Under the pieces are notes generated by a model that was not told the DNA's origin, did no database searches, and saw only the letters and a program-made list of their open reading frames with translations. A program made the translations under genes and the position numbers. Shown in pieces: positions 1-13,259 of a stretch of DNA of 13,259 nucleotides. The stretch's first letter is position 1, and every line of letters begins with the position of its first letter. The stretch comes from Terrimicrobiaceae bacterium (GTDB lineage: Bacteria; Verrucomicrobiota; Verrucomicrobiia; Chthoniobacterales; Terrimicrobiaceae), in contig JBIIPZ010000060.1 in the NCBI GenBank assembly GCA_044342325.1, positions 1 to 13,259 of the forward strand. The letters run 5' to 3'.

Positions 1-30
1 CGACAATTCAAATCGGTGTCGGGCTGTCAT
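1..30 (-). CDS. 5' end of an ORF running off the left edge (MTARHRFELS...), possibly a second PqiA-family protein
   Basis: Its ATG (30-28) overlaps the pqiA-like stop TGA (29-27) in an ATGA arrangement, and the frame is open to the edge. The product guess rests only on the upstream gene being half-length PqiA. Confidence 0.45.
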   Translation of the reverse strand, partial: MTARHRFELS

Positions 31-665
31 TTCACGCCCTCCACGTAAAGTTCGGCGCATTTTCGGTCGAAGCACTGAATGGCAAGCATGGTGAGGACGG
101 CAGTTGCGAGAATCCAGAGCGAGCCTGCCTCCCAGCTTACCGTGCCGAGGGTGCGGAGTTTCACGACGGAGACCATGCAGGCGATGGCGAAAACCGGCAG
201 GAGATTCCAGGGTTCAAGTGCCTTGACCAGGCGGAGCGCTGCTCCCATGAATGGAAGGCGCATTTGGAGAGTCCAACAGGCGGAAACATAAGAGACCGAG
301 AGCAGGTAGAAAACCGGCGCTAAAATAGCAGAGAAAAAAACAAGTGCGCCGAGGGGTTGAAATCCCTGCATCCACAAACCTTCGACACCTGTGATTATCA
401 AGTTTTCCTGATAATTTCCTGCGACGCTGAAGATGAGAATCGGATTCATATTAGCCGGGATGAGCGTGATCAAGGCCGCCATCGCAAAAGCCCAGGCCGC
501 CATCATCGTGCGCCCGGGGTGTGCTGACTTGATTTGCTCACCACAGCGTCCGCAGCAAAGGAATTCATGGGGTTTCAACTGGCGGTCGCGCAATGGAGCA
601 TGACAGCGGTGGCACTGAATCCAGCGCAGGTCGGGTGGCGGAGCTGATGAATTGAGTGCGGACAT
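27..665 (-). CDS. pqiA: Paraquat-inducible protein A family inner-membrane protein (single PqiA domain)
   Basis: 212 aa. N-terminal CxxC...CxxC pair (CHRCH, CGRCG), then ALITLIPANMNP, GVEGLW, LVFFSAILAP, PWNLLPVFAIACMVSVVKL and four hydrophobic segments, matching the PqiA pattern. Confidence 0.85.
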   Translation of the reverse strand: MSALNSSAPPPDLRWIQCHRCHAPLRDRQLKPHEFLCCGRCGEQIKSAHPGRTMMAAWAFAMAALITLIPANMNPILIFSVAGNYQENLIITGVEGLWMQGFQPLGALVFFSAILAPVFYLLSVSYVSACWTLQMRLPFMGAALRLVKALEPWNLLPVFAIACMVSVVKLRTLGTVSWEAGSLWILATAVLTMLAIQCFDRKCAELYVEGVK

Positions 666-717
666 AGCCGAGGACTAAATGACAACTCCGATCAGGGCGT
701 GAAAATCATTTGCCCGG

Positions 718-1518
718 TTAGCGTGGAACGATCGCGAGAAAATTCCGAACACGGACAATTTCGGCCAGTGAAATGCCATTTCCCGCCCACATGCCACTGG
801 AGCTGCCGCCATCGAGGTTGATGGCCGTTTTTGGCTTCCATGTATCAAGAATCGAAGGCAACGCGAGGATGCGGGCGGCATCTGCCAGTGTGACGGATGA
901 GATGTAAATAAGAGCGGTTTCGCCACGAGTTCCCTTCGCCACAACGGTCCGGCGGGCGATTCGTTCGTCATTGAGACCGGGGACCAACTGGTCATCCTCC
1001 ACAAGCATTGGCCCGCATTGGAGGGCTTGGAGGAGAGGCGATTTGCCGGAATCGTATTCCCCCGAGCGGAGGATCGAAACATGGCCGTCTTGTTTCACCC
1101 CGACCAGTCCACTGAGGAGTTTTGCCTTCTCAAAGCCGTTGATTGTTTTGCCATCGGAGATCATGAGGCCTACCGGACGGTAGTCTTTATGAAAATAGCC
1201 CCCGTTGACACCCGCCACTACCTTGGCGTTGTTCAGAGTGTTGGCCAGCGTCGCATTTCCAGGGGAGGGACTATCGATGACGCGAAGAGTGTGGTTTTTG
1301 TCATTGAAGCAAAGCGCAGTGACTCGGGCGGTCTGGTTTCCGTTCACACAGCGGGTTTCGATGACCTCCACCCCGGGACTAGGCGATCCGAGGCCTGTGG
1401 CAGAAACGATGCTCCACTCCGCCCCTGCCGAAAGAATCGTGGTGAGGAGGGCGATCTGAGCGACCAGGAACGCCCGCCACCTGCAACAGCTAGGAACTTT
1501 GGAAATGACTGAATTCAT
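718..1518 (-). CDS. Exported phosphodiester glycosidase family protein (NAGPA/DUF2233-like)
   Basis: Motifs GVNGGYF, GPMLV, ARRT and AINLDGGSSS. Signal-peptide-like RWRAFLVAQIALLTTILSAGA-EW. Start uncertain: ATG 1518 chosen, with ATG 1545 or TTG 1557 possible. Confidence 0.8.
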   Translation of the reverse strand: MNSVISKVPSCCRWRAFLVAQIALLTTILSAGAEWSIVSATGLGSPSPGVEVIETRCVNGNQTARVTALCFNDKNHTLRVIDSPSPGNATLANTLNNAKVVAGVNGGYFHKDYRPVGLMISDGKTINGFEKAKLLSGLVGVKQDGHVSILRSGEYDSGKSPLLQALQCGPMLVEDDQLVPGLNDERIARRTVVAKGTRGETALIYISSVTLADAARILALPSILDTWKPKTAINLDGGSSSGMWAGNGISLAEIVRVRNFLAIVPR

Positions 1519-1559
1519 GCTGAAGCAAGCGGGCGGTTGGAGCATTCGGATGTTCAATG

Positions 1560-3509
1560 TTACTCGTCTTTTGCAGAACTGAGGCGTGTAAGAACGCTCA
1601 AATCTTCGAGCGTCGTCGTGTCGCCGGTGATCTGGACTCCGGCGGCGATTTGTTTCAAGAGACGGCGCATGATTTTTCCACTTCGTGTTTTTGGCAGGGA
1701 CTCGGTGAAACGAATTTCGTCCGGCTTGGCGATGGGACCGATGACTTTTCCAACATGGTTGCGAATTTCCGCCGAAAGGTGCTTCGATGCGGCATGGCCT
1801 TCGCGGAGGGTAACGAAAGCCACCACGCCTTGGCCTTTGATCTCATCGGGACGCCCCACAACTGCCGCTTCGGCAACGGAAGGATGACCGACGAGGGCAC
1901 TTTCGACTTCGGCCGTTCCGAGTCGGTGACCGGCGACATTCAACACATCATCGATACGGCCAACGATCCAGAAATAGCCGTCTTTGTCCCGGCGTGCACC
2001 GTCGCCCGTGAAGTAGGCGCCTTTAACCTCGCTCCAATACTGTTTTTTGTAGCGAGGCTTGTCTCCGTAGATTGTCCGAAGCATGGCAGGCCAAGGTTTG
2101 CGAATGACAAGCTTGCCGCCTTCACCATGCTTCACTTCTTTACCGTTGTCGTCGACGATTGCTGCATCGACGCCGAAGAAAGGAAGCGTGGCCGTGCCTG
2201 GTTTGAGTGGCGTGGCACCTGGCAACGGTGAAATGAGAATCATGCCAGTCTCAGTCTGCCACCAGGTGTCAACAATCGGACAACGCTCGGCGCCGATGTG
2301 TTTATGATACCACATCCAGGCTTCGGGGTTGATGGGTTCTCCCACGCTACCGAGGAGTCTGAGTGAGGAGAGGTCGTGTTTCTTTGGCCACTCGTCTCCC
2401 CATTTCATGAATGCACGAATGGCGGTGGGTGCCGTGTAAAGGATCGTCACGCCGAGTTCCTCGATGATTTTCCAAAAGCGATCCGGCTCCGGCCAATTCG
2501 GGGCACCCTCGTAAAGAACGCAGGTAGCTCCATTGGCAAGCGGGCCGTAAACTAGGTAGCTGTGTCCGGTGATCCAGCCAACGTCGGCTGTGCACCAGTA
2601 AACATCCTCTTCTTTGAGGTCGAAGATGTATTTACTCGTTGCAGCCGTGCCGGTCATGTAGCCGCCAGTCGTGTGCAGAATGCCCTTCGGCTTCCCGGTA
2701 GAGCCGCTTGTGTAGAGGATGAACAACGGATGTTCGCTGTCGAGCGGGATGGCAGGGCAATTCGCATCGACATATTCAGCCTCGCGATGCCACCAGACAT
2801 CGCGGCCTTCTTCGATGTGGACATCCATCGTGGTGCGCTTGGCAACGATGACGCGTTTGACCTCGGTGTTCCCTTGGAGGGCGTGGTCGACATTCTGCTT
2901 GAGCGTGACGCATTGACCACGGCGGTAGCCGGCGTCTGCTGTCACCACAATTTTCGAACCGCTGTCCGCCAAGCGATCCTTGATGCTTTCACTGCTGAAT
3001 CCACCGAAGACAACCGTGTGAACCGCTCCAATGCGGGCGCAGGCCAACATCGCGATGACAGCCTCCGGAATAAGAGGCATGTAGATCAAAACGCGGTCGC
3101 CCTTTTTGACGCCATTGCGCTTGAGGATATTTCCAAAGATGCAGACTTCGCGGTGAAGTTGGTGATAGGTCAGCGTGCGGCGCTCACCAGGTTCGCCTTC
3201 CCAAATAATGGCCGCCTTGTTGCGGCGAGGTCCGTTGAGATGGCGATCGAGGCAGTTTTCCGAGGCGTTTAATTGGCCCCCGACGAACCATTCGGCATAG
3301 GGCTCTTTCCAGTCCAAAACTTTTTTCCACTTCTTTTGCCAGACTAGCTCAGATGCCTCACGGGCCCAAAATTTCTCGGGATTCTTGAGAGAATCGGCGT
3401 GAAGTTTTTTGTAATCGGCGAAACTTTTGACTGCTGCTTTTTTTGAGAAAGCGGAGGCTGGTTTGAAGATGCGTTTTTCTTGTAGGTGGGATTCGATATT
3501 TTGACTCAT
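1560..3509 (-). CDS. acs: Acetyl-CoA synthetase (AMP-forming)
   Basis: 649 aa with [62 protein letters not shown] and [11 protein letters not shown] (acetylation-site Lys). Confidence 0.98.
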
Positions 3510-3576
3510 AGGGGCAGGAACGGATATTTAAGGCAGATCGGTTGTGGTTTTGCAACACAGCATCGAAATTCCCTGC

Positions 3577-3607
3577 TTGCCAAAAAGGGATGCCAAGCGG
3601 GTAGTGT
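3577..3607 (+). promoter_or_regulatory. Putative sigma70-type promoter for the RelE-like/aminotransferase unit, probably leaderless
   Basis: TTGCCA (3577-3582), a 19-bp spacer (longer than usual), TAGTGT (3602-3607), then GTG start 6 nt later with no clear SD. Confidence 0.35.
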
Positions 3608-3613
3608 GGGGTT

Positions 3614-3976
3614 GTGTTTCAAGTGATTTTCAATCGAATCAGCGCTGCGGAGATGGCTGCGCTGCCAAAGGATTTGCAGTTGGACCTGCTGGCGGAATTT
3701 CAGTTTCTACCCGGAGATCTAGAGTCTCTGGAGGATGAGAAATTTGGAAAGGTCTCGAGGGATGGACGCTCGCTGCTGCGCTATCGGGCGAGGGATTACC
3801 GGATTTATTTTGAGAAGCATCCTGAGGGGCTTTTGATTCACCGTGTGCTTCACAAAAACACGATTCGCGACTTCCTTTTTCGCTCGAATCTCCCGATCGA
3901 TGAAGAGGACGGGGAGGTCGCCAAGACAAATGATTTCTGGTCGCTTATCCACGAAGCCGAGGAGTCGAGAAAGTGA
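3614..3976 (+). CDS. RelE/ParE-fold protein with acidic C-terminal extension; no adjacent antitoxin
   Basis: 120 aa. MFQVIF..SAAEMAALP start, LRYRARDYRIYF (compare RelE YRLRVGDYRI) and IHRVLHK. Stop overlaps the next start (GTGA, 3973-3976). Confidence 0.7.
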   Translation: MFQVIFNRISAAEMAALPKDLQLDLLAEFQFLPGDLESLEDEKFGKVSRDGRSLLRYRARDYRIYFEKHPEGLLIHRVLHKNTIRDFLFRSNLPIDEEDGEVAKTNDFWSLIHEAEESRK

Positions 3977-5124
3977 GATTTTTCAAAGACGAGGCTGAGC
4001 GTAGGCGGGAGTTTCCTGTTGTCGAAAACGGAATTTTTCTTGGCCACGCCGGTGTGACAATACTCCCGCGTCTCGCGGCGGATGCCATGAAGGCCCATGC
4101 GGAGGCGAGTTGTCACAAGCATCAGGAATTTGGAGAGGTCCTGCGGGATGTCGCCCGAACGCGCTCGCTCTGCGCGAAGCTCATTGGCGCAAATGCCGAT
4201 GAAATCGCACTGCTCGGGCCGACTTCGCTTGGGCTGAGCTTGTTTGCAAATGGGCTCGATTGGCAGGCCGGTGACGAGGTTGTTTATTACGGGGACGACT
4301 ACCCTGCGAATGTGTATCCGTGGACTGCGCTTGCTTCGCGCGGTGTCGCTGCAAAGGAACTTCACCCTGATCAGCCTGGAGGAATCACTCCTGAGCTCGT
4401 CGAATCCGCTCTGACGCCGAGAACTAAATTGGTCGCGCTGGCATCCTGTCACTACCTGAGCGGGCGCCGAATCGATGTCGAAGCAATCGGCCTCATGCTT
4501 CGGGAGAAAGGCGTCTTGTTTTCGCTTGATGCCATACAGACCCTTGGTGCAGCGCCACTCGATGTCGAGTTCGTTGATTTCCTCAGTGCCGATGCTCATA
4601 AGTGGATGCTTGGGCCCATGGCCATGGGAATCGTTTTTGTGGCGCGGAGGAATTTTGAAAAATGCCGTCCGACATTGCTTGGGGCTTGGAATGTCAAATC
4701 CCCGGATTTTATCGCTCAAAAGGAAATTGCCTTTGAAGAGACCGCCCGCCGCTATGAACCTGGAGTTTTAAATATCGCCGGCATGTATGGGATGAAGGCC
4801 AGCCTCGAAATGCTTCTCGAGATCGGCTTGGAAAATGTGCAATCCGGGATTTTGGAGAACAGGGATTATTTGGAGGACAAACTCAGCGCGGCAGGCTTTG
4901 AATTTCTCTCGCCAAGAGCTGGGGATCCTATGAGGTCCGGGATTTTAACGACGAGGCACGCATCCATCGAAAGTGGCGCGATATTTTCGAGACTCGAAGC
5001 CGCAGGAATAACTGCTTCAGTGAGAAAAAGCCATTGCGGCAGGCACTGGATTAGGTTCAGTCCGCATTTCTACAATACTATTAATGAAATGGAACGCGTC
5101 GCGGAAATTATGACACGGGATTAG
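3973..5124 (+). CDS. Class V PLP-dependent aminotransferase / cysteine desulfurase or cystine lyase-like enzyme
   Basis: 383 aa. REFP..FLGHAG, DYPAN, DAIQTLG, SADAHKWMLGP (PLP Lys), RYEPG and IRFSPHFYN. Confidence 0.92.
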   Translation: MRFFKDEAERRREFPVVENGIFLGHAGVTILPRLAADAMKAHAEASCHKHQEFGEVLRDVARTRSLCAKLIGANADEIALLGPTSLGLSLFANGLDWQAGDEVVYYGDDYPANVYPWTALASRGVAAKELHPDQPGGITPELVESALTPRTKLVALASCHYLSGRRIDVEAIGLMLREKGVLFSLDAIQTLGAAPLDVEFVDFLSADAHKWMLGPMAMGIVFVARRNFEKCRPTLLGAWNVKSPDFIAQKEIAFEETARRYEPGVLNIAGMYGMKASLEMLLEIGLENVQSGILENRDYLEDKLSAAGFEFLSPRAGDPMRSGILTTRHASIESGAIFSRLEAAGITASVRKSHCGRHWIRFSPHFYNTINEMERVAEIMTRD

Positions 5125-5150
5125 TGTAGAGGCAAGAAAATAAATTTTAA

Positions 5151-5197
5151 GGCGCGTATAATAATTTAGTGGCATTTTTAAATGGCGCGTTTACAAT
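5151..5197 (+). promoter_or_regulatory. AT-rich promoter region of the Fic gene with a GGCGCGT direct repeat, each copy followed by a -10-like hexamer
   Basis: GGCGCGT at 5151-5157 and 5184-5190; TATAAT at 5157-5162 and TACAAT at 5192-5197. Confidence 0.45.
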
Positions 5198-5210
5198 TCG
5201 TGCTAAGAAA

Positions 5211-6545
5211 ATGCCAAGAAAAATATCACATTCCAGAGTCTACTCGGTTATAAAAGCTGCCGAGTGCTTTCCTTTTGGAGCATCGATCAAGGACATTCTC
5301 ACCATCCCCATGATGAGGGGAACTCCAAAAAGAACGCTTCAAAGAGACCTCGACCGATTGGTTCAAGCCGGACACCTTAAACTTAAGGGCAAGGGACGCG
5401 CAACGCGTTACGTTATTCCTTTTGAAGAAGAAGGATCAACGAGCATCTTAAGAGAGGAACCAGATTCCTTTACGAGCGATACGCCATGGCTATCTCCCGA
5501 AGGGCGCCGTATTCGTTATTTGGTTCAGAGGCCTCGCACTGAACGCATTCCAGTCGGATACAGGTCCGATTTTTTGGATGCGTATCAACCGAATCGCACA
5601 TTTTACTTGCCCGCCGAAACGCGCGACGAACTGGCGCGATTTGGATATGTAGGCGCGGACGAATTGCCTCCTGGCACTTATTTGAGGCAAGTTTTGCAAC
5701 GCCTCTTGATCGAACTATCTTGGAATTCGAGCCGCCTTGAGGGAAATACCTACTCATTGCTTGAGACCGAACGCTTGCTCCACCTCGGTGAGGCCGCCGA
5801 GGGGCATAAATCCGAAGAGACGCAAATGATCCTCAACCATAAAGCAGCACTCGAGATGCTGTCCGACAACCCTACTGGCGTGGGGTTCAATAGCCATACT
5901 GTCTGCAATCTGCATGCGCTGCTTGCCGATAATCTCCTTCATGACCCGGCATCGTGCGGCCGCGTCCGCTCGCGGCCTGTTGGCATAAGCGGAACAGTTT
6001 TCCACCCGCTGGCTGTTCCACAACTTATTGAAGAGAAATTCGAGCAGATCTTATGGGTGGCGAAGCCATTTGAAGATGTGAATAAGAGGGTTTCCCGCCT
6101 TGCTGCAAACATTCCAATGATTCGCCATAACCTCTGCCCTCTCTCATTCACAGGGGTTGAGCAAAAGGATTACATCGGGGGTCTGCTTGGTGTCTATGAA
6201 CTGAACTGCATCGAGTATCTGCGCGATGTGTTTGTCTGGGCCTACAAAAGCTCCGCAAACCAATATATCGGCGTCAAAGAAACCCTCGGTTCGCCCGATC
6301 CATTTCGTTTAAAATACCGAAGCGAAATAACGCGTTTCGTTAGCGAAATCGCACGAAAACAAATGGATCGATTGCTATCCCTGGAATGGACGATCGCCGA
6401 GGCGGGTAGGTCCTTACCAAAAGACGATAGGGAGAGATTCCAAGAAGTCATACGCATCGAATTGGAGGGGTTGCATTCAGGCAATATCGCGAGACATCGC
6501 CTGCGCTTGTCGGAATTCGAGGCTTGGAAAAACAACTGGAAATAA
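5211..6545 (+). CDS. Fic (Fido) domain protein with N-terminal winged HTH; non-canonical and possibly deleted active site
   Basis: wHTH-like SIKDIL..PKRTLQRDLDRLVQAGHL..GKGRATRY, inhibitory motif SSRLEGN (5727-5747), LHALLADNL, and Fic loop variant KPFEDVNKRVSR. ATG 5211 preferred over GTG 5169, which lies in the promoter-like region. Confidence 0.88.
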   Translation: MPRKISHSRVYSVIKAAECFPFGASIKDILTIPMMRGTPKRTLQRDLDRLVQAGHLKLKGKGRATRYVIPFEEEGSTSILREEPDSFTSDTPWLSPEGRRIRYLVQRPRTERIPVGYRSDFLDAYQPNRTFYLPAETRDELARFGYVGADELPPGTYLRQVLQRLLIELSWNSSRLEGNTYSLLETERLLHLGEAAEGHKSEETQMILNHKAALEMLSDNPTGVGFNSHTVCNLHALLADNLLHDPASCGRVRSRPVGISGTVFHPLAVPQLIEEKFEQILWVAKPFEDVNKRVSRLAANIPMIRHNLCPLSFTGVEQKDYIGGLLGVYELNCIEYLRDVFVWAYKSSANQYIGVKETLGSPDPFRLKYRSEITRFVSEIARKQMDRLLSLEWTIAEAGRSLPKDDRERFQEVIRIELEGLHSGNIARHRLRLSEFEAWKNNWK

Positions 6546-6564
6546 CAATGCGCCGCGACTGCGG

Positions 6565-6592
6565 AAAAGCATTACCCCCATGATGCTTTTTT
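6565..6592. terminator. Possible bidirectional terminator hairpin between convergent genes
   Basis: AAAAGCATTA-CCCCCA-TGATGCTTTT is a 10-bp stem with one wobble pair, with an A-run on the left and a T-run on the right. The stem is AT-rich and therefore weak. Confidence 0.45.
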
Positions 6593-6605
6593 CTGAGCGG
6601 GATGA

Positions 6606-7703
6606 TTAGCTCCCGTGCTTGGAGTGCCAGTCTTTGTAAGCGAAGGGCGAGATTTCTGAGGGCTTGATCTCGCTGCGTCCGCCCCAGAAGACATTCGTGT
6701 AGGAGACAGGGATGCCGGCTTCGACAAGATGGGCGTCGATGGCGGCTTTGAATTGCATGACGCGATCCTTCTCGGTTCCATGGGAGACGGCCATGATGTT
6801 CACATTGTTGAACTCGGGACCTCCCTCGCGCCAGTAGCAATGCGTGAGACATTCGTGGCGACCGATCTGAGCGCCGACCTCTTCTTCGCGACCGACTGGA
6901 ACGGCCCAATGGAAGAGGGCGTTGAAACGAGTCACGCGCACGCCGGTTTGCGAGGGTTTCACATGTTCCAGAAAAGTGGAGAAACGACCAAGCAGCTTGC
7001 GCTGTTGGAGGGATTCGGCGACGGCGTAGAATTCCTCAAGGGTGACTCCAGCCTCCTCCGCTCGGGAGTGCCACGCCGGTTCGCGAATTTCCTCTGGAGC
7101 AAATTCGCGCTTGAGGGTCATGAGAACACGCCATTCGTGATCGGTAAGATGAACGACGCCTGTTTTGAGCATGCGGGCAGAACCCTCCGATTTGTCGCCC
7201 GGCTCGATCGTCTTGCGGCGGACATGACCGACTCCGAGGGCAAAGATGCCCTTAGCCGGCATAAGGCGATAGGCCTCGGCACCGGTAAGGCTCATGAGAA
7301 GGCGGCAATGGGCATCGAGCGACTGGCCTGCGGGCACTTTCAAAGTCGTCCAGAGTTTGTAGGCCTCGCCAGGGATTTTGGCATCCGTCGAGCGGATGAC
7401 GACATGGCCCGAAAACGGGTCCTCGCGGAACATGAAATCAAAGGCGGCATCGAGTTTCTCAGCGGGCACTTTCCAGGCCACAAGCGCCCCCTCGGCGAGA
7501 TTCGTGGCCAGAAGAGTCTGACGGACGCGGCGGATCGTTCCTGCATCAACCATGGCGCGGATGCGTTCGATAACGACGGGCAACTCCACGCCGCTGAGGC
7601 GGGAAATTTCCTGAAACGGCTCCCGGGGAAAACCGGAAATCTTGTCTTCGGAAACGGCGAGGATGCGGGCGTTGACGGGGTCGTGGTGCTCGGTCGGAAT
7701 CAT
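6606..7703 (-). CDS. Fused two-module Lrp/AsnC-fold protein, siroheme decarboxylase-like (AhbA/AhbB or NirDL type)
   Basis: Two HTH+RAM repeats (EPFQEISRLSGV..GTIRRV and EPAWHSRAEEAGV..KLLGRF) with GALVAWKVP / NALFHWAVP and HxxxR motifs SGHVVIR / THCYWR. ATG 7703 (365 aa) chosen over 7784, which overlaps the divergent promoter. Confidence 0.78.
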   Translation of the reverse strand: MIPTEHHDPVNARILAVSEDKISGFPREPFQEISRLSGVELPVVIERIRAMVDAGTIRRVRQTLLATNLAEGALVAWKVPAEKLDAAFDFMFREDPFSGHVVIRSTDAKIPGEAYKLWTTLKVPAGQSLDAHCRLLMSLTGAEAYRLMPAKGIFALGVGHVRRKTIEPGDKSEGSARMLKTGVVHLTDHEWRVLMTLKREFAPEEIREPAWHSRAEEAGVTLEEFYAVAESLQQRKLLGRFSTFLEHVKPSQTGVRVTRFNALFHWAVPVGREEEVGAQIGRHECLTHCYWREGGPEFNNVNIMAVSHGTEKDRVMQFKAAIDAHLVEAGIPVSYTNVFWGGRSEIKPSEISPFAYKDWHSKHGS

Positions 7704-7774
7704 TGGAAGACGGGGATGATTGCCGCAGGCACGCAATCTCTGCAAGGCGGGATGTTTTTTTGGCGGGGCGTTTC

Positions 7775-7802
7775 TTGCAATCAATCGCGCGAACGCTATG
7801 CT
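7775..7802 (+). promoter_or_regulatory. Putative sigma70 promoter of moeB
   Basis: TTGCAA (7775-7780), 16 bp, TATGCT (7797-7802), 23 nt upstream of ATG 7826. Confidence 0.5.
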
Positions 7803-7825
7803 TGCGGGCTCATTTTTTAAACGAC

Positions 7826-9013
7826 ATGAAAAGCATTCTGGATCCGGCCCGTGTGGAAAAAATCGACTTCAGCAACGATGAGGTGGCCCGCTACTCGCGG
7901 CATCTCATCATGCCCGAGGTCACCATGGAGGGGCAGAAGCGCCTCAAAGCAGCGAAGGTTCTCTGCATCGGCACAGGCGGACTCGGCTCGCCAATCGCTC
8001 TTTATCTGGCCGCTGCTGGCGTAGGCACGCTCGGGCTTGTGGATTTCGATGTCGTGGATTACTCGAACCTCCAGCGTCAAATTTTGCATGGAACGAAGGA
8101 TGTGGGCCGCAAGAAGCTCAACAGCGCCCGCGACCGCATCAAAGAAATCAATCCGAATGTGCAGGTGAATCTGCACGATGCCCTCTTCCAAGCCGAGAAC
8201 GCCCGCGAGATTGTCGAACCCTACGATATCGTGATCGACGGCACGGATAATTTTCCCACCCGCTACCTGAGCAACGATATCTGTGTTTTTCTGAAGAAGC
8301 CGAACATCTATGGCTCGATCTTCCGCTTCGACGGCCAGTGCACGGTCTTTGCCCCTCATCTCGGCGGTCCCTGCTACCGCTGCCTCTACCCGGAGCCTCC
8401 ACCGCCAGGGATGGTTCCAAGCTGCGCCGAGGGCGGCGTGCTGGGCGTTCTGCCAGGCGTGATTGGGGTGATGCAGGCGATTGAAGCGATCAAGCTCATC
8501 GTAGGAATTGGCGAACCGCTCATCGGCCGCCTTGTTCACTTCGACGCGCTGAAGATGAAATTCCGCGAGTTTAAAATCCGCAAGGATCCGAGCTGCCCAG
8601 TTTGCTCGGAAAACCCGACCATCACCGACCTCATTGATTACGAAACATTCTGCGGCATTCCTCAGGCCCGCGCTGAAGAGGAAGCTGAACAGCCTGTGCC
8701 GGAGATCACGGTGGAAGAACTGAAAGCCCGCATCGACCAGAACGACAAATTCGTCCTTCTCGATGTGCGCGAACCCTACGAATGGGACATCGCCCGCCTC
8801 CCTGGGGCGAAACTCATTCCGCTCGGCGAACTCTCCTCGCGCATGAGTGAGCTCGACACGGCGGATGAAATCATCATCCACTGCAAAGTCGGAGGACGTA
8901 GCGCCACGGCGGTGCGCCATCTGCAGAAGGCTGGTTTTTCGAAACTTCTTAATGTGGCCGGCGGCATCCTCGCTTGGGCTGACAGGGTGGATACCTCGAT
9001 GCCGAAATACTGA
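7826..9013 (+). CDS. moeB: MoeB/ThiF-family adenylyltransferase fused to a C-terminal rhodanese (MoeZ/MoeBR type)
   Basis: RYSRHL, GTGGLG, SNLQRQ, DGTDNF, PCYRC..SCAEGGVLG, CPVC, then rhodanese LLDVREPYEW and HCKVGGRS. Start at ATG 7826 (395 aa), not 7703. Confidence 0.95.
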   Translation: MKSILDPARVEKIDFSNDEVARYSRHLIMPEVTMEGQKRLKAAKVLCIGTGGLGSPIALYLAAAGVGTLGLVDFDVVDYSNLQRQILHGTKDVGRKKLNSARDRIKEINPNVQVNLHDALFQAENAREIVEPYDIVIDGTDNFPTRYLSNDICVFLKKPNIYGSIFRFDGQCTVFAPHLGGPCYRCLYPEPPPPGMVPSCAEGGVLGVLPGVIGVMQAIEAIKLIVGIGEPLIGRLVHFDALKMKFREFKIRKDPSCPVCSENPTITDLIDYETFCGIPQARAEEEAEQPVPEITVEELKARIDQNDKFVLLDVREPYEWDIARLPGAKLIPLGELSSRMSELDTADEIIIHCKVGGRSATAVRHLQKAGFSKLLNVAGGILAWADRVDTSMPKY

Positions 9014-9036
9014 GCCCACATCCAACAGGATTAATT

Positions 9037-9060
9037 ACGGAGGACACGGGGAGCACGGAG
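9037..9060 (+). repeat. Left arm of an inverted repeat built from 9-bp units (CACGGAG core)
   Basis: ACGGAGGACACGGGGAGCACGGAG. Its reverse complement matches 9392-9415 at 22 of 24 positions. Confidence 0.85.
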
Positions 9061-9078
9061 GGAGGATGAAACCTCAAG

Positions 9079-9092
9079 TTTAAGATCTTAAA
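9079..9092. repeat. Perfect 14-bp palindrome
   Basis: TTTAAGATCTTAAA is its own reverse complement; intergenic and AT-rich. Confidence 0.8.
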
Positions 9093-9165
9093 TTATCTGT
9101 GACACCAACGGACCTTCCTGCCATTCCGACCGATATTTCCGTTTCGAGTTAATATTTCCCATCTC

Positions 9166-9378
9166 ATGCAACCGACCCAATCCCAGTTCATATGCCCGCA
9201 AACGCGACAAAGCCTGCGCGAGGCGACGAATGAGGAACTGGCGGCCCTTCGGAGAATGCCAGAGCACTCCTCACTGGAAGCCGCTTGGATACGCACCGAC
9301 TCAGCCATTGCCTACCCCGTTCAAAACGGCATCCCCCTTCTCATCCCATCCGCCGCCATTCCACTCAGCCAAGCCTAA
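9166..9378 (+). CDS. Trm112/YcaR-like small protein
   Basis: 70 aa. FICPQTRQSL and AYPVQNGIPLLI match the Trm112p-like pattern. Confidence 0.85.
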   Translation: MQPTQSQFICPQTRQSLREATNEELAALRRMPEHSSLEAAWIRTDSAIAYPVQNGIPLLIPSAAIPLSQA

Positions 9379-9391
9379 ATTCTCTTTTCCA

Positions 9392-9418
9392 CTCCGTGAT
9401 CTCCGTGTCCTCCGTGGT
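9392..9418 (-). repeat. Right arm of the inverted repeat: three tandem 9-mers
   Basis: CTCCGTGAT-CTCCGTGTC-CTCCGTGGT, complementary to 9037-9060. Confidence 0.85.
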
Positions 9419-9444
9419 AAAAACCTCTTAAAACCCACCATCTC

Positions 9445-10332
9445 ATGACTGAACTCGAACGCATCCGCCACTCCGCCGCCCATGTGCTTGCCACGGCCAT
9501 CTCGAAAATCTGGCCCGAGGCCCAGTTCGCGGCAGGCCCGCCGGTGGAGAACGGGTTTTATTATGACTTGGAGCTTCCCCACCGCATTTCGCCGGAGGAT
9601 TTTGCCCGCATCGAGGAAGAGATGAAACGCGAGATCAAGGCCAACCATATCTTCGAGCGTGTTGAAATTTCCCGAGCCGACGCCCTTATCATGGCCGAGC
9701 GAGGTGAACTGGCATCCCTCGCGCCACGCGGTGTGCCATCCAAATTCAAGCTCGATATCGTTCAGAACATCCCGGAGCAGGAAACGATCACGCTCTACCG
9801 CAACGGCGAGTTCACCGATCTCTGCGCAGGTCCTCATGTGATGCGCACCGGCAACATCGGCGCGTTCAAGCTCACGCATGTCGCCAGCGCATATTACAAA
9901 GGCGACGAGCGGAACCCGCAACTCCAGCGCATCTATGGCACGGCATTCAAAAACAAGACCGCCATGGAGGAGTATTTCACCATGCTCGAGGAGGCCAAAA
10001 AGCGCGACCACCGCAAGATCGGCGCCGAGATGGGGCTTTACGCCATCGACTCCGAATTTGTTGGCCCCGGCATGCCACTCTGGCTACCCAAAGGCACCGT
10101 GCTGGTCGAGGAACTCGAAAAACTCGCCAAAGAATCTGAATTCGCCGCAGGCTATGTGCGCGTCCGCAGCCCACACCTCGCAAAGGAGAAAATGTATAAA
10201 ACCTCCGGCCACCTCCCCTACTACGCCGAGAGCATGTTTCCTCCGATGGAAATGGACGAGCACCGCGAGGAGCGCGCAAAAATCCTAAGTCGCATGGCCG
10301 AATTGGAGCGCATCCTGACACCGGAGGGCTGA
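9445..10332 (+). CDS. thrS: Threonyl-tRNA synthetase, N-terminal half only (editing domain plus motif 1); a split gene, trans-editing factor or truncated gene
   Basis: RHSAAHVLA, GPPVENGFYYD, DLCAGPH, AYYKGDERNPQLQRIYGTAF, RDHRKIG, GYVRVRSP, SGHLPYYAESMFPPM, then a stop at 295 aa. No MNCP zinc ligand, motif 2, motif 3 or anticodon domain in any frame before priA. Confidence 0.93.
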   Translation: MTELERIRHSAAHVLATAISKIWPEAQFAAGPPVENGFYYDLELPHRISPEDFARIEEEMKREIKANHIFERVEISRADALIMAERGELASLAPRGVPSKFKLDIVQNIPEQETITLYRNGEFTDLCAGPHVMRTGNIGAFKLTHVASAYYKGDERNPQLQRIYGTAFKNKTAMEEYFTMLEEAKKRDHRKIGAEMGLYAIDSEFVGPGMPLWLPKGTVLVEELEKLAKESEFAAGYVRVRSPHLAKEKMYKTSGHLPYYAESMFPPMEMDEHREERAKILSRMAELERILTPEG

Positions 10333-10370
10333 AGAATACCCGTTCCGAAACAACTCCGCTGGCGCAGAGC

Positions 10371-10399
10371 TTGCCGCAGGCAGGGATGGCGGGGATATT
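10371..10399 (+). promoter_or_regulatory. Putative leaderless sigma70 promoter of priA
   Basis: TTGCCG (10371-10376), 17 bp, GATATT (10394-10399), then ATG 10407 seven nt later. Confidence 0.4.
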
Positions 10400-10406
10400 T
10401 GGCGGA

Positions 10407-12611
10407 ATGTTTGTAAGAGTGTTACCTGACCAGGCCGCTGGCCGAATGCTGGATTACAGCGTTCCGGAGCCTATGCGGGCAGCTGTTGGGATCGGTTCTA
10501 GGGTGCGTGTGCCCGTGAGGACGCGGCTTCTACCTGGGACGGTGATTGAAATTTTGGAGGAATCGGAATTCGCCAAGGTGCGGGACATTGCCGAGTTGCT
10601 GGATGAGAAGCCCATGATCCGCCCGTCGCTTTTGGAATTGGCACGTTGGATGAGTGACTACTACTGCTGTCCGCTCGAAACGGCCGTTCGAAGTGTGCTA
10701 CCGGTCGCAGTCAGGGACGGGAAAGTCGGCGCCAAAAAGCAAAATACTGTGCGGACTGCGAGGGCGTTCACCGAGGAGGATTTTGAAGCTATCGCCCGCC
10801 GAGCCCCGCGTCAGGCTGATGCGCTGCGAGTGCTGACGGAGGAGCCTTTACTGGTTACGGAGGCGGCAACTAAGGCTGGTGTCCATGAAAGTGTCTTTCG
10901 CACTTTGGAAAAGAACGGCTTGGTTTTCATCGAGGCCTCGGTCATTTCCAGAAATCCCTACTCCGAGCGCTTTGTGGCAGGTGCCGAGTTGACTTTGAAT
11001 GCCGAGCAGGAGGCAGCGATGAAGGTTGTGGTCGAAACCATGGCTAAACCCGAGAAGCCGATTCTGCTCTTCGGCGTGACCGGTTCAGGGAAAACGGAAA
11101 TCTATCTGCGCGCCATCCGGCATGCGGTCGATACCGGCCGAACCGCTCTGGTGCTCGTTCCAGAGATCGCCCTCACTCCCCAGACGGTGGAGCGCTTCAA
11201 GTCCCGCTTCGCCGAGATGCAGGACCAGATTGCCGTGCTGCATAGCCACCTCTCGGAAGGCGAACGCCACGACGAGTGGCACAAAATTCACAACGGAACG
11301 GCAAGAATCGTGATTGGCGCCCGGAGTTCGATTTTTGCGCCGGTCGAAAACCCAGGGATCATCATCGTCGATGAGGAGCACGAGAATTCCTACAAACAAG
11401 ACGAGGCCCCGCGCTACAATGCCCGCGACATGGCTGTGCTTCGCGGAAAGCGTGAAGGCGCTGCCGTTCTTTTAGGCAGCGCAACGCCATCCCTCGAAAG
11501 CTGGCACAATGCCCAGTCGGGAAAATACCAACTCGTGCGTCTCGACCAGCGTGTAGATGACAAAAGCATGCCGGTCGTGAGGGTCACGGATCTGCGGCGT
11601 CCCACGAGGAATGATCCCGAGGGCGGCATTCTCTCGCGTGCCTTGCGCGAGGCTGTGGAAGGGCGAATCGCCAAGGGAGAACAGACGATTCTTTTTCTGA
11701 ACCGCCGGGGATTTTCCACCTCCATGATCTGCGAGGCATGCGGCCATGTATGCCAGTGTCCGGACTGCAGTGTCTCCCTCACCTACCACCGTGCCGCCGA
11801 GCGGTTGATGTGCCATATTTGCGGCCACAGCAGCCGGGCACCGAAGGTCTGTCCGAAATGTTCAGACCCGAAGATTCGATACTCGGGAACCGGCACGCAA
11901 AAGGTCGAAGAAGCCCTGAAGCGCATCTTCCCGAAAGCCCGCATCGCCCGCATGGATGCCGACTCCATGACCCGCAAGGAGGCTTACCGCGAGACGCTAG
12001 GAGCTTTTAAAGAAGGCCGTATCGACATCCTTCTCGGCACGCAAATGATCGCCAAGGGACTCCATTTCCCCAATGTCACGCTCGTCGGGATCGTGAATGC
12101 CGACCTCGGCCTCCACATCCCGGATTTCCGCGCTGGCGAGCGGACATTCCAGCTCCTCACACAAGTCGCCGGCCGTGCTGGCAGGGGCGAGATGGAGGGC
12201 GAGGTGTATGTGCAAACATTCACGCCCTTCAGCCCGTCGATCCAGTTTGCAAGACATCATGATTTCGAAGGATTCATGGAGCAGGAAATGGAATTCCGGA
12301 AACGCTTCGACTACCCACCGTTCGGCCGCATGGCCATGATCACGCTCAGGGGTGCCATGCGGGAGCGTGTGGAGTTCTCCGCCCAAACGCTTGCGAGAAA
12401 ACTGAAAGCCGCAGCGGCAGCTGGAGTCATCACAGGCGAAGGCGTGCCAGCACCTCTAGAAAAGGCAAAGACTTACTATCGCTTCCAAGTCTCACTTCGC
12501 GGTCCCTCCTCACTTCAACTTTCGCGTCTGGCGCGATCCACACTCGACGCCCTGCCAATGCCCGAAGATGTTTTTGTCGCGGTAGACATCGATCCGTTGC
12601 ACCTTATGTGA
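10407..12611 (+). CDS. priA: Primosomal protein N' (replication restart helicase)
   Basis: LDYSVP..GSRVRVP, GVTGSGKTE, LVPEIALTPQ, DEEHE, SATPS, four CxxC pairs, GTQMIAKGLHFP and QVAGRAGR. ATG 10407 preferred over TTG 10371. Confidence 0.98.
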   Translation: MFVRVLPDQAAGRMLDYSVPEPMRAAVGIGSRVRVPVRTRLLPGTVIEILEESEFAKVRDIAELLDEKPMIRPSLLELARWMSDYYCCPLETAVRSVLPVAVRDGKVGAKKQNTVRTARAFTEEDFEAIARRAPRQADALRVLTEEPLLVTEAATKAGVHESVFRTLEKNGLVFIEASVISRNPYSERFVAGAELTLNAEQEAAMKVVVETMAKPEKPILLFGVTGSGKTEIYLRAIRHAVDTGRTALVLVPEIALTPQTVERFKSRFAEMQDQIAVLHSHLSEGERHDEWHKIHNGTARIVIGARSSIFAPVENPGIIIVDEEHENSYKQDEAPRYNARDMAVLRGKREGAAVLLGSATPSLESWHNAQSGKYQLVRLDQRVDDKSMPVVRVTDLRRPTRNDPEGGILSRALREAVEGRIAKGEQTILFLNRRGFSTSMICEACGHVCQCPDCSVSLTYHRAAERLMCHICGHSSRAPKVCPKCSDPKIRYSGTGTQKVEEALKRIFPKARIARMDADSMTRKEAYRETLGAFKEGRIDILLGTQMIAKGLHFPNVTLVGIVNADLGLHIPDFRAGERTFQLLTQVAGRAGRGEMEGEVYVQTFTPFSPSIQFARHHDFEGFMEQEMEFRKRFDYPPFGRMAMITLRGAMRERVEFSAQTLARKLKAAAAAGVITGEGVPAPLEKAKTYYRFQVSLRGPSSLQLSRLARSTLDALPMPEDVFVAVDIDPLHLM

Positions 12612-12619
12612 CCGCTGAG

Positions 12620-13259
12620 ATGAAGGTTCACCCGATTGTCTATTTTCTATTCAAGTCCATGGTGCGATTGGCGCTGGTGCTGATCTTCGTCGGCATTCCG
12701 GCGGCAGTATACTATCAGCGCGTCCATGGAATCGGATTCGGCGCGAAGGAGGCCCTTGGCAAGGCGCTGAGCACTCCGACACTCGAAGTCACCATCGGTC
12801 ACCTGTCCATCAATCCCTTCATGGGACTTGTTGCGAGGGATGTTCGAGTCCACGAAATCAGCAACCACTCAAACGCCTTGGCATCCATCAACCAGGTCGC
12901 GATTGCCATCAGCCTTGGCGAACTCCTGCACCGGCGTATCATCGTGGACAGCCTTTCACTGAGATCGGCCGAAGCATCGATTCCGCTCCCGAAATCACCC
13001 GATGGACGCCGGGTTACGATCCAGCACATCAATGCGGAAATCACCCTTCTCGGAGACAGCCTCCGCGTGAGTTCGTTTGAAGCGGTAGTGGAAGGCATTC
13101 GCCTCCGATTAGCTGGAGAGGTTCTCAATCCCTTCTCTTTGAAGATACCGGAGCATTCACCAGATCCCAATCCTCCTGGGCAGGATCCGCCATTTGAAAA
13201 AATCCTGACCGCCCTGCGAGAGACATCCTTTCCGCGTGGGGAGTTGCTTATTCAAGGAA
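12620..13259 (+). CDS. Partial membrane-anchored AsmA/TamB-like beta-rich protein, running off the right edge (not in the ORF track)
   Basis: Hand translation from ATG 12620 is open to the end: MKVHPIVYFLFKSMVRLALVLIFVGIPAAVYY (TM anchor)...LEVTIGHLSINPFMGLVARDVRV...ISLGELLHRRIIVDSLSL, an AsmA-N-like pattern. Confidence 0.7.
   Translation, partial: MKVHPIVYFLFKSMVRLALVLIFVGIPAAVYYQRVHGIGFGAKEALGKALSTPTLEVTIGHLSINPFMGLVARDVRVHEISNHSNALASINQVAIAISLGELLHRRIIVDSLSLRSAEASIPLPKSPDGRRVTIQHINAEITLLGDSLRVSSFEAVVEGIRLRLAGEVLNPFSLKIPEHSPDPNPPGQDPPFEKILTALRETSFPRGELLIQG

Follow-up and report, generated by a model that had tools for sequence, protein, structure and literature searches.

A truncated thrS gene in Terrimicrobiaceae, probably the N-terminal half of a threonyl-tRNA synthetase encoded in two pieces

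How can the gene of an essential enzyme end inside the catalytic core and still be kept? The question is raised by a 13,259-nucleotide stretch of DNA from a Terrimicrobiaceae bacterium of the Verrucomicrobiota (assembly GCA_044342325.1, contig JBIIPZ010000060.1, positions 1 to 13,259 of the forward strand; the whole stretch is called the window here), in which an uninterrupted open reading frame (ORF) runs on the forward strand from an ATG at position 9445 to a TGA at 10330-10332 and encodes 295 residues of a threonyl-tRNA synthetase (ThrRS). An earlier, sequence-only reading of this DNA had offered three accounts of the ORF without ranking them, namely a naturally split two-chain ThrRS, a trans-editing Ser-tRNA(Thr) deacylase or regulator that docks through motif 1, and a recent rearrangement or misassembly. 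Our analysis favours the first of these, disfavours the second and rejects the third as an explanation of the truncation, although a rearrangement that separated the two halves did happen at some time in the window lineage. We consider it probable that the ORF (9445..10332, +) is thrS-N, the gene for the N-terminal subunit of a ThrRS encoded as two genes, and the genome from which the window comes would then also contain the second gene, thrS-C.

Read directly from the sequence, the protein has HSAAH at residues 9-13 (nt 9469-9483), DLCAGPH at residues 125-131 (nt 9817-9837) and SMFPPM at residues 263-268 (nt 10231-10248), and the chain stops 27 codons further on, all as first described. HSAAH and DLCAGPH, which contain the HxxxH and CxxxH motifs (the latter as CAGPH at residues 127-131), delimit the core of the editing (N2) domain (9469..9837, +), which matches the tRNA_SAD family and has no TGS domain ahead of it. 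TGS is likewise absent by Pfam from split and unsplit ThrRS of the clade (all N-halves, and the unsplit protein P0123 encoded at L002:5001-6803), whose proteins begin a few residues ahead of the HxxxH motif. The first part of the class II catalytic core follows, from the motif 1 region to SMFPPM (about residues 187-268; 10003..10248, +), as delimited by structure alignment; with ThrRS structures that comprise the catalytic domain only, the alignment of thrS-N begins at residue 187. The chain closes with a lineage-specific C-terminal tail (residues 269-295; 10249..10329, +) that carries a conserved motif and, according to a helix model, a proposed docking helix at residues 274-291. The TGA behind it (10330..10332, +) occupies the identical position in two related loci, L065 and L066, the N-halves of which are 98% identical to that of the window. 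Against the TIGR00418 thrS profile, thrS-N aligns over positions 1-256 of 565 with 233.5 bits, under the curated cutoff of 383.65, and the sole Pfam signature in the protein (P0001) is the tRNA_SAD editing domain at residues 115-164 (E 3.8e-16); PF00587 and PF03129 were not found in this Pfam search. The chain has neither the zinc site nor motifs 2 and 3 nor an anticodon-binding domain, which leaves its class II core incomplete. When an unsplit relative (P0123, 600 aa) and a separate C-half protein (P0136, see below) were searched by tblastn against the six frames of the window, matches were confined to residues 1-275 (E 8e-168); the E values of any further hits were 0.79 or higher, and a ThrRS C-part was not found in any frame. 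The claim that no downstream frame resumes ThrRS is thereby borne out.

A pseudogene truncated not long ago, or a chimera in which the assembly has fused thrS to the gene priA, is suggested by the ThrRS score of thrS-N below the cutoff, by priA lying directly downstream and by a window contig of only 13 kb. The same form is found far beyond this contig, however. In a family search limited to proteins of similar length, in which 121 clusters were listed and classes were counted by regular expression, 102 clusters consist of the N-half only and carry the tail motif MEMDEHREER..AELE..L, 11 are likewise N-only but have a short or different tail, four are unsplit proteins cut by contig ends and four have neither motif. 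Exactly 295 residues are found in 58 of the 121, and the N-half tails of the listed clusters end 12-41 residues (median 28) after the MFPPM motif. N-only clusters occur on contigs of up to 444 kb, another being on one of 232 kb, and their named sources are Terrimicrobiaceae, Chthoniobacterales, Limisphaerales and Verrucomicrobiota. The editing residues H9, H13, D125, C127 and H131 are invariant in 34 of 34 N-halves, across which the catalytic-core part of about 80 residues is near-invariant. In addition, a scan of a genome collection, from which 80 loci were kept among at least 607 matching stretches, returned L065 and L066, two independent metagenome-assembled genome (MAG) loci labelled Terrimicrobiaceae, with the same 295-residue ORF, the same stop and the same downstream neighbour priA. 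The thrS-N/priA junction sequence is common to the window and these two loci, the sole difference being about 1.2 kb of inserted DNA, including a RhuM-family gene, in L065 and L066.

Selection on the truncated gene was assessed by the ratio of nonsynonymous to synonymous substitution rates (dN/dS, Nei-Gojobori method, shared codons 1-268). The ratio is 0.032 and 0.046 for the window against L065 and L066, respectively, and 0.012 between these two, at dS values of 0.26-0.46, whereas split against unsplit genes give 0.033-0.053 and unsplit genes among themselves 0.030-0.035. The tail codons show 1.5 nonsynonymous versus 3.5 synonymous differences, and the GC content at third codon positions (GC3) of thrS-N is 0.73, the highest of six window ORFs checked (0.52-0.70 in the other five), in agreement with the strong C/G-ending codon bias described for it. 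Because the dN/dS of split copies is as low as that of unsplit genes, thrS-N is as constrained as the intact essential thrS. Because the same form is present in 102 of the 121 listed clusters and dN/dS is low, the truncation is neither a misassembly nor a relic, and we regard the pseudogene or chimera as very improbable. The comparisons with relatives that the sequence-only reading had proposed gave a consistent picture, as both the stop and the thrS-priA adjacency are kept in L065 and L066 and no relaxed selection is seen.

The site of the cut lies in a segment peculiar to the clade. Aligned to Staphylococcus aureus ThrRS (1nyq), the N-half corresponds to residues 70-327 and the C-half, from its own residue 42 onwards, to residues 322-621; by sequence, the tail of the former (residues 275-295) and the head of the latter (residues 1-41) are without counterpart in solved ThrRS structures, the N-half alignment stopping at residue 274-275. 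Among the 80 loci fetched, the spacing from MFPPM-x to YYLKAMNCP is 3-8 residues in other phyla and 18-83 residues in verrucomicrobial loci, where the inserts are acidic and glycine-rich low-complexity linkers or long helical segments. The cut of the split ThrRS falls in this Verrucomicrobia-specific insertion, between MFPPME and YYLKAMNCP, a site that is read through in one ORF in 78 of the 80 loci and has a stop in two, L065 and L066. A single unsplit protein, P0355 (714 aa), contains MFPPMTIDEHQEGRRKLEARLAELSSQL, then GGGGS and then QVEQAVKSGSAPADVVAAFNELASLREQLKRFGEPESYYLKAMNCP, that is, a tail-like helix and a head-like segment in one chain, and it is the only one of the 120 longer unsplit clusters listed to have both the tail and the head motif. 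This arrangement of tail, GGGGS and head places the split in the first loop of a helical module that has been inserted, and P0355 may represent either the pre-split ancestral form or a re-fusion of adjacent halves. P0355 lies on a 4.4-kb contig, and an assembly or frame error is possible. The insert of P0212 was compared as well; it gave an ungapped BLAST extension to the head with few identities and no extended match to the N-half tail, and homology of this insert to the head is weakly supported. Two other proteins, P0186 (487 aa) and P0167 (435 aa), contain a RAYT/IS200-like transposase segment that continues in the same frame into GVERYYLKAMNCP and then the remainder of ThrRS. P0186 has a PF01797 match with an HVHILF motif, and P0167, without a Pfam transposase match, is like P0186 by eye. 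These fusions are possibly a second, different interruption of the same loop and a clue to the origin of the splits.

A split enzyme had been predicted to leave a separate ORF beginning just before MNCP, and a family of such C-halves was found. It was searched for with the C-terminal 318 residues of the unsplit P0123 (L002) and a length window that excluded full-length enzymes. Of the 120 clusters listed, 46 were found by regular expression to lack the motif 1 region and to have a conserved head, and inspection by eye added P0147. The motif 1 region is present in 44 others, either unsplit proteins or fragments, and the remaining 29 are fragments or proteins of other form. The C-halves are 354-416 residues long and have a two-helix head of about 45 residues, with the consensus MSAILKDEEF.AIE.AVKAG.AP.EIAAAFNEL.ALR..LK.LGEPES, ahead of YYLKAMNCP. 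They carry PF00587 and PF03129 according to Pfam, all of 27 members compared have C56, H107 and H245, presumably the zinc ligands, and their contigs reach 484 kb. The C-half P0136 covers TIGR00418 positions 243-561 with 348.7 bits, below the cutoff of 383.65 like the N-half; the coverage of the two halves is complementary, and their scores (233.5 + 348.7) add up to about the 580.1 bits of the unsplit P0123. The C-halves nearest to the window lineage share 88-91% of their residues with the C-part of L002 (90% for P0136), and the N-part of the window is 92% identical to that of L002. The longest-contig values recorded for the clusters are identical in three pairs of N- and C-half clusters, each pair with the same source (P0116/P0220, 191164; P0101/P0153, 6401; P0071/P0156, 9993), and no such value of the 120 unsplit clusters coincides with that of any N-half cluster. 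These shared values may hint at N- and C-halves on the same contig, with only the 191-kb pair being a strong case. A truncation conserved in many lineages, strong purifying selection and a separate C-half family together support a naturally split ThrRS.

Structure prediction suggests how the halves might come together. Modelled alone, the tail forms a helix at residues 274-291 (predicted local distance difference test, pLDDT, 72-84) and the head two helices at residues 3-18 and 24-42 (pLDDT 77-87); these monomer models, with a mean pLDDT of 65.9 and 56.0, came from shallow alignments and served only to assign secondary structure to the tail and the head. The complex of N-half and C-half was modelled with our own alignments of 34 and 27 rows, respectively, and reached an interface score (ipSAE) of 0.90 in three runs, compared with 0.00 for the best of three controls. 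The ipSAE mark is reached by 116 of 157 solved complexes and by 2 of 215 mismatched pairs, counts that are rough here since own alignments were used. Contacts agree by at least 98% among the runs, and the partner pLDDT is at least 88. In the model, N-half residues 236-240 make beta-sheet contacts with C-half residues 76-79, and the recovery of these core contacts may reflect likeness to solved ThrRS structures. Further contacts involve the tail (N-half residues 273-274, 276-277, 280-281, 283-284, 287-288 and 290-292) and the head (C-half residues 1, 6, 9-10, 13, 25-26, 29-30, 32-33, 36-37, 39-40 and 43-44), where they recur about every 3.5 residues, as helix faces packing on each other, in segments that are absent from solved ThrRS structures. 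We read the tail and the two head helices as a three-helix docking bundle, and the model supports a binding of the two chains, which may thereby assemble into one catalytic domain.

Here we propose that thrS-N would supply the editing (N2) domain, the linker and the first approximately 80 residues of the class II core, including the motif 1 region, and would end in a short helix that is not found in unsplit ThrRS outside the clade. thrS-C, encoded elsewhere, would supply the two-helix head, the rest of the core with the zinc site and motifs 2 and 3, and the anticodon-binding domain. The chains would associate by completing the beta sheet of the catalytic domain, while a small helical bundle would form from the N-half tail helix packed on both head helices of the C-half. 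ThrRS acts as a dimer through motif 1, and the active enzyme is for this reason expected to be an (N+C)2 heterotetramer that would both aminoacylate and edit; neither half should work alone. A single-chain ThrRS could also be regained if the halves were rejoined by a split intein, by trans-splicing or by readthrough of the stop codon, a notion for which nothing speaks beyond the gene being in pieces. Neither the N-half P0001 nor the C-half P0136 showed an intein or Hint domain. At 27 and about 45 aa, respectively, the tail and the head, which are predicted to be plain helices, are too short for intein halves, translation past the TGA of thrS-N gives 26 unrelated codons and then TAA, and an Rfam scan of the window returned no family at threshold and identified no T-box or other leader. 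Rejoining into one chain thus seems extremely unlikely to us.

The surroundings of thrS-N bear on where the other half went. A ThiF/rhodanese gene (7703-9013, +) and an ORF of 70 residues (9166-9378, +) form an upstream synteny anchor (7703..9378, +), recognised by family matches and alignment, that precedes the split N-half in the window, L065 and L066 as well as the unsplit thrS in L002, L011 and L001. ThiF and Rhodanese domains are found upstream in the window, L065 and L002, and the 70-residue ORF aligns across all six loci; it has no Pfam or NCBIfam match, and we make no claim for a resemblance to Trm112-like proteins. The downstream contexts differ, priA following thrS-N in the window and a gene for a TonB-dependent receptor following thrS in L002. 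Since the upstream anchor is common to split and unsplit genes, thrS-N sits at the ancestral thrS locus, from which the 3' half was separated in the window lineage. In other lineages, the N- and C-half genes may be close together.

Two further features were observed around the gene. A 24-nt inverted repeat with CTCCGTG-like units (window 9037-9060 and 9392-9415; 92% complementary, 331 nt apart) flanks the 70-residue ORF. It had no chance match in 200 shuffles and is present in L065 and L066 and in none of the other 78 loci, unsplit Terrimicrobiaceae included; it could be a REP-like (repetitive extragenic palindromic) element or a regulatory structure. L065 (5968-6990) and L066 (2385-3407) carry, between the stop of thrS-N and priA, a gene for a RhuM-family protein of 340 residues (PF13310, E 2.8e-99), the insertion point of which corresponds to window 10333-10370. 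As this gene is absent from the window, the thrS-N/priA spacer accepts mobile DNA. The 340-residue ORF had been suspected to be the C-half and was rejected as such when it proved to encode a RhuM-family protein.

Several observations weigh against a two-gene ThrRS. The C-half was not found in the window (9.4 kb upstream and 2.9 kb downstream of thrS-N), in L065 (5-kb flanks) or in the L066 locus, and among the 80 loci kept there was neither a C-half-only locus nor a second thrS of the L065 and L066 assemblies, which is weak evidence either way. The contig hints are indirect, as a short value of 2175 coincided by chance between one of the longer unsplit clusters and a cluster of the C-part search, two clusters unable to share a contig. 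The catalytic-core fragments of each half modelled alone have a pLDDT below 50, but this stems from shallow alignments and from a predictor that differs from the one used for the complex, and the contrast between the lone and the paired halves is only suggestive. Furthermore, the distribution of the split is patchy. A tree of the N-part with the junction excluded (83 rows, 36 of them split) needs 11 changes between split and unsplit, of which well-supported branches force at least four, and the C-part tree (73 rows) needs 12, at least seven of them forced. The approximately unbiased (AU) test on the N-part tree rejects a single split clade (log-likelihood difference 305, p 1.5e-95), and a single vertical origin of the split was rejected with it. 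Outside the junction, split and unsplit proteins are up to 97.0% (P0092 versus L004, N-part) and 97.5% (P0204 versus L032, C-part) identical; these close pairs carry unrelated junction sequences, and the tails and heads of split forms are mutually homologous. Repeated fission and fusion, recombination of a junction cassette via conserved flanks, and exchange between coexisting paralogs remain as explanations of the patchiness. The high identity could also arise from coexisting split and unsplit genes that exchange sequence, and it is mainly on account of such paralogs that we hold the two-gene ThrRS to be probable and claim no more for it.

The patchy distribution and the 97.0-97.5% identity would also fit a different role, in which the split pair or the lone N-half is an auxiliary ThrRS-like system beside an intact thrS, with the N-half as a Ser-tRNA(Thr) trans-editing factor or regulator. 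The editing residues are intact and invariant, as such a role would have it, and AlaX-type models do match the protein, if weakly (27 bits); the AlaXM score of 27 is far under the cutoff of 300. A free-standing editing protein of the AlaX or ThrRS-ed type, however, is not what the N-half looks like, with its approximately 80 core residues and a tail after the editing domain. The near-invariant core fragment has been kept, is poorly modelled alone and would, like a docking tail that contacts the C-half head in the model, be useless to a free editing protein, which also counts against a regulator docking through motif 1. In addition, the N-half lies behind ThiF and the small ORF as does the unsplit thrS of sister lineages, that is, as a positional orthologue, and its dN/dS equals that of intact thrS. 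None of the 120 unsplit clusters shares a longest-contig value with an N-half cluster, as described above, and no second L065 or L066 thrS is among the 80 loci kept, with full-length matches listed down to 56% identity, a weak argument. Taken together, we judge an auxiliary system unlikely, with some small chance left to it.

Within the preferred two-gene reading, we further speculate that the junction, from the tail and its stop to the start and the head, might be a transferable 'split cassette' that undergoes homologous recombination via the ultra-conserved flanks GHLPYYAESMFPP and YYLKAMNCPHHH and has switched verrucomicrobial thrS repeatedly between one- and two-gene forms. This idea is tentative and may well prove wrong. 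If it holds, the three-helix docking module would be a natural fragment-complementation device for a two-chain class II core, and the mobile genes seen at the site (the RAYT/IS200-like fusions and RhuM) may have created or spread the break. With separate genes, the cell might moreover adjust how much active, editing-competent ThrRS it has by way of the supply of one or the other half.

Downstream of thrS-N, a spacer (10333..10406), which in L065 and L066 holds the insert with the RhuM-family gene, leads to priA (10407..12611, +), the gene of the replication restart helicase, which is identified by PriA Pfam domains and by TIGR00595 (638 bits) and is no part of ThrRS. The priA frame opens at a TTG at 10371. 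Its ATG at 10407 lies 74 nt past the thrS-N stop and fits the PriA family models, whose alignments begin at residue 12-14 of the protein (P0002), so that the distance given in the sequence-only reading stands. The end that it set for the thrS fragment, 10370, is the last base before that TTG, while the gene itself ends at 10332. A promoter-like motif that it placed ahead of priA found no support, as a consensus scan detected no sigma-70-like site in 8900-10600; two terminator-like sites in the same interval are both on the minus strand and at chance level.

Elsewhere in the window, an ORF of 458 residues (5169-6545, +) has no Pfam or NCBIfam family and a GC3 of 0.52, and the lowest-GC stretch (4751-5500, 0.44-0.45 versus about 0.57) overlaps its region; this ORF may have been acquired from elsewhere. 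ORFs at 6729-7820 (+), antisense to an AsnC/NirDL-like gene (6606-7784, -), and at 7817-9025 (-), antisense to the ThiF gene, have no family match and look like shadow frames. In the genome collection, L028 (7991-8104) and L040 (7780-7935) each have, about 1 kb downstream of the intact thrS, a short additional match to the last 40-50 residues of ThrRS; these may be small duplicated 3' fragments. Verrucomicrobial-type thrS is found on contigs (L007, L009, L012, L017, L028, L036 and L038) labelled Sulfotelmatobacter, Akkermansia muciniphila, Binatia, Bifidobacterium and Cyanophyceae, and L038 and L039 are identical in the N-part despite labels of different phyla; some MAG labels or bins are probably wrong. 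Finally, the N-half-like P0082 (388 aa) has an editing domain partly duplicated in tandem and an unrelated C-terminal end, and is probably a chimeric or frameshifted assembly.

Given that an essential class II enzyme would be cut inside the catalytic core in what looks like a large part of one phylum, the split ThrRS may be of interest beyond this locus. Both halves score below the curated thrS cutoff, and annotation pipelines may call them partial, pseudogene or hypothetical; the names of some N- and C-half clusters do read 'partial' or 'hypothetical protein'. Genomes with a split ThrRS may be reported as having no ThrRS, which would distort completeness and essential-gene estimates for Verrucomicrobia. 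For protein engineers, the junction might offer an evolution-tested split site together with a docking pair, and evolutionary biologists might find in it a single essential gene that is alternately fused and split in closely related organisms.

A description of a bacterial split ThrRS was not found by full-text literature searching, from which subscription journals were mostly excluded, and a prior description is possible. To our knowledge, aminoacyl-tRNA synthetases in pieces are rare, and the described cases known to us either have their break at a domain boundary or close to one, or involve other enzymes. The closest relatives, the unsplit verrucomicrobial ThrRS (P0123 of L002, L031, P0181 and P0355), have the same domain order without TGS and an insertion at the same site; they are single chains of 597-714 residues that score 580-584 bits, above the thrS cutoff, whereas here the chain stops after the first inserted helix. 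The leucyl-tRNA synthetase (LeuRS) of Aquifex aeolicus is reportedly an alpha/beta heterodimer and thus likewise a bacterial synthetase from two genes whose products must assemble, but it is a class I, leucine-specific enzyme, and we know of no dedicated docking helices in it.

In some crenarchaea, according to PMC3592468, ThrRS is divided into ThrRS-cat and ThrRS-ed, complete units that act in trans, with ThrRS-cat aminoacylating alone and ThrRS-ed editing through a fold like that of archaeal D-aminoacyl-tRNA deacylase. This agrees with the different fold that the sequence-only reading had given for crenarchaeal editing proteins. The same paper assigns a central part in editing to the HxxxH motif, with its His73 and His77. 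The crenarchaeal pair resembles the present case in that ThrRS functions are placed on two genes and editing is apart from most of the synthetic site; it differs in that its members are complete units, whereas here the cut runs through the catalytic core and the editing domain is the bacterial N2 type. The alanyl-tRNA synthetase (AlaRS) of Nanoarchaeum equitans is, according to PMC10036535, split in its tRNA-recognition domain into an alpha subunit, whose catalytic domain is intact and which is weakly active by itself, and a beta subunit. It is thus also a class II synthetase in two subunits, but archaeal and with an uncut catalytic domain. Engineered split synthetases, in which fragments are activated by fused interacting domains (PMC9974479), come near in another respect, as two fragments become active through an added interaction module. 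Those constructs are synthetic and derive from other synthetases, while the helical module described here, which resembles a natural version of such interaction tags, is natural, conserved and under selection. As a bacterial ThrRS that is cut through the class II core and provided with docking helices of its own, the split ThrRS is different from these known cases.

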